DNA from: Leptonemataceae bacterium
GTDB lineage: Bacteria > Spirochaetota > Leptospiria > Leptospirales > Leptonemataceae
DNA length: 64,000 nt
Reading direction: 5' to 3'
Assembly: GCA_965262995.1 (NCBI GenBank)
Contig: OZ253574.1
Coordinates: 994,513 to 1,058,512, forward strand
Made by a program: the position numbers and the translations under genes. Under the pieces are notes generated by a model. It was not told the origin of the DNA and made no database searches. It saw nothing but the letters and a program-made list of their open reading frames with translations. Positions 41,485 to 45,079 of this stretch are shown piece after piece. The first letter of the stretch is position 1. Each line of letters starts with the position of its first letter.

Positions 41485-42837
41485 ATGAAAAAAAACGAAA
41501 ATAGAATAAGAGCTAAAAAAAAAATAGTTACTCCCTTATCTGTCCCCACCACTCACGCTATTGTAAACGCTGATAGTCGAGAAATGAAAGCTGTAGCCGA
41601 TAAGAGTGTGCATTTAGTTATTACCTCTCCCCCTTATTGGCAGCTTAAAGATTATGGTACAGAAAATCAAATAGGCTTTCACGATGATTATGAGTCCTAT
41701 ATCAATCACCTGAATCTTACATGGTCAGAGTGTTACAGAGTCTTGCATGATGGATGTCGTTTGTGTGTAAATATAGGAGATCAATTCGCAAGGGCAACAT
41801 ATTATGGACGATATAAAGTGATACCCATCCATTCTGAAATTATAAAATTTTGTGAAACCATAGGCTTTGATTTTATGGGGAAAATAATTTGGCAGAAAGT
41901 AACCACAATGAATTCTTCAGGTGGGGCGAGTATAATGGGTAGTTTTCCTTATCCAAGAAATGGAATAGTAAAATTAGATTTTGAGTATATTTTACTTTTT
42001 AAGAAACAAGGAAAGTCTCCAAAACCTACAAATGATCAAAAAAGTTATTCTAAAATGACAACAGAAGAATGGAATACGTACTTTAATGGACATTGGAATT
42101 TTTCAGGTGCACGGCAGGATAAGCATCTTGCTATGTTTCCTGAGGAGTTGCCCTTGCGTTTGATTAAAATGTTTTCTTTTGTGGGAGAGGTGGTATTGGA
42201 TCCTTTTATGGGTAGTGGCACAACAGCTAGCGTCTCTAAAAAACTAAATAGAAACTCTATTGGCTATGAAATCAATCCCGAATTTATCCCCATTATTAAA
42301 GATAAGATAGAAAAGATAGAGGGGGTGGGTGAGGTTACAATACTAGAGCAAAAATCTGCAGAAAAGAAACGTATTACAGAAGAGACTTTTGAGAACTCCT
42401 TATCCAAACTACCATACAAATTTATAGATTTTCACAAGCTAGATAAGAAAATAGATGTAAAGAAAAAACAATACGGCTCAAGATTAGACGCAAATAGTAA
42501 CCGAAAGAGAGAAGAGTTTTTTACAGTAAAAGAAATACTAAGTCCATACCTAATCAAACTTAATAATGATGTGACAATTCGTTTGCTCGGTATAAAAGAA
42601 AATCCTCTAGTAAACGGAAAAGCTAATGAATATTTAGAAAAAAAAATAAAAGGGAAAAAGGTATTTCTAAAATATGAAAACGCCTTGGCTTCATTGCAAG
42701 CTAACCCAATGGTGTACTTGTATTTAGAAAATAAAACATTTATCAATGCACATTTATTAAAAAATAAATTAGCTTTGGTTGATAATTCTATAGAGTATAA
42801 ACATAAGAATAAATTTAACAAATTGGTAAATATTTGA
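41485..42837 (+). CDS. DNA methyltransferase (beta-class N6-adenine/N4-cytosine) fused to a C-terminal SNase/OB-like domain
   Basis: Motif IV 'ITSPPYW' precedes motif I 'LDPFMGSGTT'. C-terminal 'VTIRLLGIKENP...KKVFLKYE...YLYLENKTFINAHLLKNKLA' resembles a thermonuclease fold but lacks its catalytic residues. Confidence 0.75.
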   Translation: MKKNENRIRAKKKIVTPLSVPTTHAIVNADSREMKAVADKSVHLVITSPPYWQLKDYGTENQIGFHDDYESYINHLNLTWSECYRVLHDGCRLCVNIGDQFARATYYGRYKVIPIHSEIIKFCETIGFDFMGKIIWQKVTTMNSSGGASIMGSFPYPRNGIVKLDFEYILLFKKQGKSPKPTNDQKSYSKMTTEEWNTYFNGHWNFSGARQDKHLAMFPEELPLRLIKMFSFVGEVVLDPFMGSGTTASVSKKLNRNSIGYEINPEFIPIIKDKIEKIEGVGEVTILEQKSAEKKRITEETFENSLSKLPYKFIDFHKLDKKIDVKKKQYGSRLDANSNRKREEFFTVKEILSPYLIKLNNDVTIRLLGIKENPLVNGKANEYLEKKIKGKKVFLKYENALASLQANPMVYLYLENKTFINAHLLKNKLALVDNSIEYKHKNKFNKLVNI

Positions 42838-43894: not shown

Positions 43895-43945
43895 ATAAAA
43901 AACAAATCTGTCTTAATTTAATAATATTACTATTAAATTAAGACA
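43895..43945 (-). terminator. rho-independent terminator of the histone-fold gene
   Basis: Perfect 15-bp stem: TGTCTTAATTTAATA (43909-43923) pairs with TATTAAATTAAGACA (43931-43945). On the minus strand it is followed by GATTTGTTTTTT. Confidence 0.6.
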
Positions 43946-43976
43946 GGAAATAAACGTAAAAAATAGATTAATAACT

Positions 43977-44162
43977 CTAAAAATCGTGTGGGCGAACAGT
44001 GCTTCTTTTGTTTTCTTTTGTTCTTTCTATGGCACGATCAATTAGTTCATAAATTTTTTCATTTAATGCGTCCATTGCGTCGCCCGAAGATTGAAATCCT
44101 TTTTCTCTGATGTAACCCTTTGTTTTACTAGTTACTATCAATGTTTCTTTTTCATTGGCCAT
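43977..44162 (-). CDS. bacterial histone-fold protein (DUF1931 / HBb-like)
   Basis: 61 aa; 'LIVTSKTKGYIREKG...SGDAMDALNEKIYELIDRAIERTKENKRSTVRPHDF' has the single histone-fold layout of Bdellovibrio/Leptospira-type bacterial histones. It has its own terminator. Confidence 0.7.
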   Translation of the reverse strand: MANEKETLIVTSKTKGYIREKGFQSSGDAMDALNEKIYELIDRAIERTKENKRSTVRPHDF

Positions 44163-44266
44163 TGTTTTACCTCTAATTTTATTAGTCTCAATAGTTTCTC
44201 AAAAAAATTAATGAGACAAGACTTGTGCCAAAATGAATTTAAGAAGATGACCTGCAAGTTATTTTT

Positions 44267-45079
44267 ATGTATTTAAACTTTAATTATCCTGAAATATTGG
44301 GAATACTAAATATTACCGAAGACTCTTTTTCAGATGGGGGTAACTATTTACAGTTTGAAAAGGCACTTGCTCATTCTTTGAACCTAATAAAGGGCGGGGC
44401 AGATATAATAGATATAGGCGCTGCCGCTAGTCATCCTCATGCTAAAAAAATTTCGTTTGAAAAAGAAATAGAAAGACTTGATATGCTTTATGATGAATTA
44501 AAAAAAAGAAAAATAAAAATTTCTATAGATTCTTTTCAACCTAATGTTCAAAAATATTTTATATCTAAAAAAGTTGAATATTTGAATGATACAAGTGGTT
44601 TTTCAGAGGAAATGTATAGTATACTTGAGGATGCAGAATGTAAATTAATTGTGATGTATTCTTTGCAAAAAGATGGTTTATCGTATCAAGAATATTCTGA
44701 GCCTAAAAAAGTTTATAATGAGCTATTAAAGTTTTTTGAAAAAAAAATAAATAGCTTATACAAGAGTAATATTTCTAAAGATAGAATTATATTAGATACA
44801 GGAATGGGTTTTTTTTTAGGGAAAAACGTATCGAGCTCTATTTATATTTTACAAAAATTAAATGAAATCAAATATCATTTTAAAGAATTTCCTATGCTTA
44901 TATCTGTTTCAAGAAAGTCGTTTTTAGGAGAACTTACAGCTACCTCTGTTCATGAAAGAGAAGCAAGTTCATTGAGTGCTGAATTATTTGCATGTTTACA
45001 AGGGATAAATTTTATTAGAACACACAGTCCTAAAAATTTAAAAAATGCACTAGAGGTATGGAAGTCTTTATTTTTATAA
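44267..45079 (+). CDS. folP: dihydropteroate synthase
   Basis: 'GILNITEDSFSDGG', 'IIDIGAAAS' and 'LDTGMGFF' pterin-binding domain motifs. Confidence 0.88.
   Translation: MYLNFNYPEILGILNITEDSFSDGGNYLQFEKALAHSLNLIKGGADIIDIGAAASHPHAKKISFEKEIERLDMLYDELKKRKIKISIDSFQPNVQKYFISKKVEYLNDTSGFSEEMYSILEDAECKLIVMYSLQKDGLSYQEYSEPKKVYNELLKFFEKKINSLYKSNISKDRIILDTGMGFFLGKNVSSSIYILQKLNEIKYHFKEFPMLISVSRKSFLGELTATSVHEREASSLSAELFACLQGINFIRTHSPKNLKNALEVWKSLFL

Follow-up and report, generated by a model that had tools for sequence, protein, structure and literature searches.

The window (the whole stretch of DNA analyzed here, 64,000 nucleotides) carries on its minus strand an ORF of 61 amino acids that starts with ATG and stops with TAG (Table 1). 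Its translation reproduced exactly the protein quoted in the sequence-only reading, an earlier interpretation made from the letters alone that had proposed a stand-alone bacterial histone fold at this position. The genome is assembled in 2 contigs (2.43 Mb, 34.6% GC, 92.6% complete) and contains the gene in one copy. The two neighbors, encoding a DUF5715 protein and dihydropteroate synthase (folP), are both on the plus strand. Because both flanking genes lie on the opposite strand, the histone gene is necessarily its own transcription unit, and its earlier description as monocistronic is borne out by this geometry. The start codon is preceded by a Shine–Dalgarno-like AGAGGT, and the two closest relatives, the metagenomic loci L033 and L034, have a GAGG in the corresponding place; the upstream region had thus been wrongly described as lacking such a site. 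Downstream, the clean terminator that had been anticipated was recovered as an 18-pair stem with a 3-nt loop (43946–43908), followed by ATTTGTTTTT. It was the 1 site detected in a scan of 900 bases, compared to 0.2 expected in shuffles. Different hairpins, read by eye, occupy the terminator position in L033 and L034.

Table 1 Features of the histone locus (window coordinates).
Feature	Position	Strand	Remarks
DUF5715 protein, 285 aa	42930-43787	+	Convergent with the histone gene
Intrinsic terminator	43898..43946	-	Between the convergent histone and DUF5715 genes
Predicted FtF (HLp-type) histone CDS, including TAG	43977..44162	-	ORF, 67% identity to HLp, AlphaFold2/Foldseek, dN/dS
AT-rich intergenic spacer, 104 bp	44163..44266	-	Common to the histone gene and divergent folP
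Shine–Dalgarno-like AGAGGT	44174-44169	-	GAGG at 44173-44170, 7 nt before ATG
Dihydropteroate synthase, folP	44267-45079	+	Divergent from the histone gene

The histone promoter must lie within the spacer shared with folP, although a σ70 consensus scan of these 104 bp returned no site. Three-way alignment of the spacer revealed the conserved blocks CTTGC, ATTTTGG and TAAT-AAA, assignable to neither gene in particular. Within 44200–44266, AAAAATAACTTGC adjoining the folP start and the ATTTTGG block were conserved in three relatives, with the remaining spacer diverged; these two may belong to a promoter or leader, either that of folP or that of the histone gene. The pairing of the histone gene with the DUF5715 gene is kept in the two closest relatives, absent in more distant ones and without an evident functional link. 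In L034, folP was called as two fragments of 140 and 126 aa (1972–2837), probably owing to a frameshift or misassembly, the contig depth being 2x. Two genes from the histone gene, positions 41485–42837 (plus strand) encode a 450-aa N6/N4 DNA methyltransferase with PF01555 at residues 42–272 and approximately 180 further C-terminal residues without a Pfam match; the two closest relatives have a response-regulator gene in its place.

The reading frame is a real gene. Identical DNA was assembled in 4 public runs from 3 samples, with 0 variants within the histone gene; the runs in which this sequence was found were all DNA metagenome assemblies from a single study, with no RNA run among them. The protein is 90% and 82% identical to those of L033 and L034, respectively, and comparison to these two relatives gave a dN/dS of 0.03–0.07, with synonymous sites near saturation (pS of 0.62–0.68). 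The gene is under strong purifying selection. Conservation and dN/dS of the minus-strand frame ruled out a chance or spurious ORF, and likewise the overlapping plus-strand ORFs at 43988–44110 and 44091–44276. The start methionine is common to 12/12 close homologs. Upstream of this ATG, the frame remains open for only 12 codons and contains no ATG, GTG or TTG; therefore, a longer form of the 61-aa protein, or an N-terminal tail on it, is impossible.

The family of the protein was settled by a sequence search of the PDB, as the curated Pfam and NCBIfam libraries gave sub-threshold matches only. The best phmmer hits were 9qt0, 9qt1 and 9qt2 (E = 1.1e-21; 78.7 bits to 9qt0), the structures of HLp, the face-to-face (FtF) histone of Leptospira perolatii (UniProt A0A2M9ZN55; PDB 9QT0, 9QT1 and 9QT2; Hu et al., Nat Commun 2025, PMC12701072). 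The alignment to HLp is gap-free over residues 4–61 (58 aligned residues), and BLASTP gave 67% identity and 83% positives. The single-chain AlphaFold2 model contains helices at residues 12–20 (α1), 27–50 (α2) and 58–60 (a one-turn α3), which reproduces the helix-loop-long helix-loop-helix layout that had been read from the sequence. Its pLDDT of 69.8 is moderate, as can be expected of a chain modeled in the absence of its dimer or tetramer partners. When the model was searched with Foldseek, 9qt1_A and 9qt0_A ranked first (probability 1.00, TM 0.67–0.73), so the sequence and fold searches both uphold the proposed stand-alone histone fold. The protein is a single histone fold with no extra domain, and none of the remaining Pfam and NCBIfam models scored above threshold. 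Its α2 is shorter than that of nucleosomal histones and its α3 is truncated, as the modeled α3 helix is followed directly by F61, the end of the chain, in agreement with the gap-free alignment to HLp, in which α3 is formed by the last four residues (PMC12701072). An archaeal or eukaryotic nucleosomal histone was rejected. PF00808 (CBFD_NFYB_HMF), against which the sequence-only reading had suggested a check, matched nothing in the entire genome at E ≤ 1; the NCBIfam archaea_histone model gave 13.9 bits (E = 0.057) versus a cut-off of 50; no archaeal chain in the PDB was matched by phmmer at better than E = 0.2 (9f2c); and α3 is a single turn. All the sequence-level criteria that could be applied identify the 61-aa protein as an FtF (HLp-type), α3-truncated histone.

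The residue roles established for HLp (PMC12701072) could be transferred directly, with the HLp residue number equal to that of the 61-aa protein plus two. In the tetramer network, HLp R49, N53 and R55 are conserved here as R47, N51 and R53, while S52 and T61 are changed to E50 and H59. R47, N51 and R53 are kept in all Leptospirales rows of the alignment, including the Leptospira-like sequences, and together with D60 are invariant in 12/12 homologs. The RD clamp of HLp, R55–D62, corresponds to R53–D60, for which a salt bridge is predicted, and the C-terminal F63 corresponds to F61. Among the DNA-contacting residues, S14, K15, K17, G29 and T57 of HLp are identical (S12, K13, K15, G27 and T55), whereas A13, K21, T27 and T56 are substituted, mostly conservatively, by T11, R19, S25 and S54. 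The TSK motif noted earlier is present as T11-S12-K13; the second proposed motif, with two residues between TV and D, is in fact R53-S-T-V-R-P-H-D60, which has three residues between V and D.

The distribution of the gene was surveyed. A word-indexed protein search returned 11 close homologs only and missed the Leptospira proteins, and an exhaustive search returned 424 representative clusters at E ≤ 1e-3. The named genomes of the closest homologs are MAGs labeled Leptonemataceae, Leptospiraceae or Leptospirales, more loosely Spirochaetales or Spirochaetaceae, and in a few cases Planctomycetota. These labels agree with the Leptospira-like affinity that had been suspected and lend no support to the alternative placement in Bdellovibrionota/Oligoflexia. 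The source organism is an uncultured member of Leptospirales, probably of Leptonemataceae. The histone is present in one copy in 38 of 41 relatives and in 31 of the 32 high-quality genomes, in agreement with the published occurrence of histone homologs throughout Leptospirales (Hocher et al., Nat Microbiol 2023, PMC10627809). Across a sample of the phylum, 33 of 151 genomes gave a match; all strong matches (E = 1e-27 to 1e-38) fell within the order of the window's genome, and distant ones (E = 1e-8 to 1e-14) were found in a few other families. Bacterial FtF histones are known mainly from Spirochaetota, Planctomycetota, Bdellovibrionota and Myxococcota (PMC11390915; PMC12701072), and the alignment published with HLp includes a Leptonema illini protein (PMC12701072). 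Many of the best-scoring relatives from the exhaustive search (P0012, P0014, P0016, P0018 and others) are 120–190 aa long and match the 61-aa query twice; these look like fusions of two FtF-like histone folds. Two essentially complete genomes of the order, G040 (genus g25, 99% complete) and G169 (genus g22, 100% complete), gave no histone match even at E ≤ 10, and the lack of a histone in G040 qualifies the published statement on all Leptospirales.

The window has the gene order WecG-folP-histone-DUF5715 in common only with the two nearest metagenomic relatives, and the WecG/folP/DUF5715 neighborhood was not shared by 30 other loci (22 named loci and 8 relatives), including those of same-genus genomes. 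At the Leptospira-like locus L029, the methionine aminopeptidase gene (map) and a DUF350 gene come directly after that of the histone, as published. In the window's genome, map lies 433 kb from the histone gene and tblastn detected no DUF350 homolog; the hlp-map-DUF350 order of Leptospira is absent.

The complement of other nucleoid proteins was compared. HU/IHF (PF00216), which matches 131 of 151 genomes of the phylum, gave no match in the window's genome, where at 92.6% completeness a gene could lie in the missing sequence, and none in two same-genus genomes. As no HU/IHF-family gene is detectable, it is probably the histone that serves as the principal general architectural protein of this nucleoid. 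Genes for a Dps-like protein (C1:2063416–2063898) and a YbaB/EbfC protein (C1:283596–283922) are present, and the histone, while plausibly the chief protein for general DNA packaging, is accompanied by other nucleoid-associated proteins. Elsewhere in the order, the Leptospira-like genus g22 is without HU, g24 has both HU and the histone, and G040 has two HU-family genes and no histone. G169 has neither, which may reflect an assembly gap. Most genera of the window's own family (f1) have only a divergent HU-like gene (PF00216 E = 1e-7 to 1e-12, frames of 130–230 aa). Together with the lack of such a gene in the window's genus, this may point to HU having been lost in steps in a lineage that carries the histone. 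A strict rule that the histone replaces HU was rejected as only partly true, given both proteins in g24, HU only in G040 and the HU-like gene in most genera of the family. HU/IHF loss accompanies the histone in the window's genus and in g22, not in all Leptospirales.

Taking these data together, we consider it very likely that the protein is an α3-truncated FtF histone and HLp ortholog that forms a DNA-wrapping tetramer and probably acts as the principal architectural protein of the nucleoid in general. The tetramer, the wrapping of DNA, the abundance and the role in bulk chromatin are all inferred by homology. By analogy to HLp, two chains would pair through their crossed α2 helices into a head-to-tail histone-fold dimer, and two dimers would meet face to face at the end of α2, loop L2 and the one-turn α3, with R47, N51, R53, H59 and F61 as the contacting residues. 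The tetramer would bind DNA without sequence specificity through backbone contacts, using T11-S12-K13, K15 and R19 of α1 and the paired L1/L2 loops (S25, G27, S54 and T55). DNA would thereby be wrapped around the tetramer, HLp being a stable tetramer that wraps ~60 bp (PMC12701072), and the histone would act alongside YbaB/EbfC and the Dps-like protein. A stronger version, in which a tail-less 61-residue FtF histone is the only general DNA-packaging protein in an HU-less 2.4-Mb Leptonemataceae-like lineage, is conceivable but doubtful. If true, it would represent a minimal histone-based bacterial chromatin, and a codon usage unlike that of ribosomal genes would suggest that the level of the protein is controlled differently from that of the Leptospira ortholog.

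The sequence-only reading had assigned the protein to the HBb and DUF1931 types, neither of which held. An HBb-type bacterial dimer histone would remain dimeric and would bend DNA or bind it end-on, with no wrapping by a tetramer. The HBb entries 8cmp and 8fvx do follow HLp in the phmmer search with significant E-values (8e-6 to 1e-5), HBb is the second fold match (TM ~0.65, ahead of eukaryotic histone-fold proteins at insignificant E-values) and a short α2 with a one-turn α3 is also found in HBb (PMC12701072). The identity to HBb, however, is 39% compared to 67% toward HLp, with an E-value 16 orders of magnitude worse, and HBb reads S..DGR, with S and D at the positions of R47 and N51, two tetramer residues that are invariant in the close homologs of the 61-aa protein. 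A published clustering of histone sequences also keeps bacterial FtF and bacterial dimer histones apart, with the Leptospira and Leptonema proteins on the FtF side (PMC12701072). We regard a purely dimeric, HBb-type protein as very unlikely. Membership in Pfam DUF1931, which would make the protein an Aq_328-type pseudodimeric histone-like protein, is suggested by a weak match to PF09123 (15.8 bits, E = 0.016) and by the PDB molecule name of 9qt0, ‘DUF1931 domain-containing protein’, but its probability is negligible. The match falls below the gathering score of 21.8 and covers only positions 21–52 of the 138 in the profile, and the 61-aa protein has one histone fold instead of a fused double fold. 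DUF1931 proteins are ~138-aa pseudodimers that form a compact cluster well separated from the FtF histones (PMC12701072). The failed gathering score and the single-fold length have already refuted this membership.

The remaining alternative accepts the FtF fold but assigns it to a low-abundance or specialized DNA-binding protein, perhaps acting under particular conditions or at particular loci. Codon usage is in line with such a role. Compared to 22 genes for ribosomal proteins and EF-Tu taken as the reference (median CAI of 0.68; background median of 0.61), the histone gene has a CAI of 0.58, the 26th percentile of 1767 genes, and its log-likelihood codon score is in the 2.5th percentile, or the 9th versus random 60-codon windows. 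The lack of a recognizable σ70 promoter upstream and of the Leptospira hlp-map-DUF350 context also fits, and the Dps-like and YbaB/EbfC proteins could bear part of the architectural load. Codon usage gives no support for the high expression that had been proposed, although a signal from 61 codons in a weakly biased genome is weak evidence. Against a specialized role, no HU/IHF match is found in this or the two same-genus genomes, the histone gene is single copy, is found in almost all of the order and evolves under very strong purifying selection, and the Shine–Dalgarno sequence and terminator are conserved in position. Moreover, the L. interrogans ortholog is among the most abundant proteins of its cell (PMC10627809). 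We consider a specialized or scarce FtF protein improbable, and favor the HLp-type, DNA-wrapping general architectural histone.

Bacterial histones have been recognized as real chromatin proteins only in 2023–2025, and very few have been studied. The 61-aa gene adds a well-supported ortholog from an uncultured, small-genome relative of Leptospira. The current picture is unchanged, as an HLp-type histone is expected in this order and its occurrence throughout Leptospirales is already published. The modest points that stand out are the lack of HU in the background, the exclusion of any N-terminal tail, the lost synteny and the atypical codon usage. Leptospirales FtF histones have been stated always to carry a tail (PMC11390915), a statement that the tail-less 61-aa form qualifies. 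An N-terminal extension is excluded for this gene and in several sister genera, which may argue against a conserved function for the basic ‘tail’ ascribed to Leptospirales histones. As the short tail-less form is the only one that can be encoded, it also provides independent support for the start codon chosen for HLp.

Among known systems, HTkC and other archaeal FtF histones are likewise α3-truncated and form tetramers through two separate interfaces (Schwab et al., Nat Commun 2024, PMC11390915), but are distant in sequence from the 61-aa protein. HBb (Bd0055) of Bdellovibrio bacteriovorus (8CMP, 8FVX and 9EZZ) shares the α3-truncated fold, a length of ~60 aa, the T/A-S-K motif at the start of α1 and the R...D clamp; it differs in being a dimer that bends DNA, in lacking the R and N tetramer residues and in belonging to another sequence cluster (PMC12701072). 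Much closer is the L. interrogans histone LA_2458 (UniProt Q8F3E8 / A0A2H1XGH2), which ranks second to fourth in protein abundance, is enriched in the nucleoid and could not be deleted (PMC10627809). This histone, probably essential there, is an ortholog of the 61-aa protein, and the Leptospira-like homolog from g22 (L029) is 69–72% identical to the latter. In Leptospira, an open frame of 74–84 codons allows a longer, basic N-terminal form, unlike the gene described here with no upstream start codon. Compared to HLp, the N terminus of the 61-aa protein is two residues shorter, its gene lies between folP and DUF5715 while that of Leptospira adjoins map/DUF350 or a large coiled-coil gene, and the genome has a Dps-like gene, whereas L. 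perolatii and L. interrogans are reported to have none (PMC12701072). The two proteins (61 versus 63 aa) nonetheless share the same α1-L1-α2-L2-one-turn α3 layout, most DNA-contact residues and a genomic setting with a single histone gene and no HU. The tetramer-interface and DNA-contact residues defined by the HLp crystal structures hold in a second family of the order.
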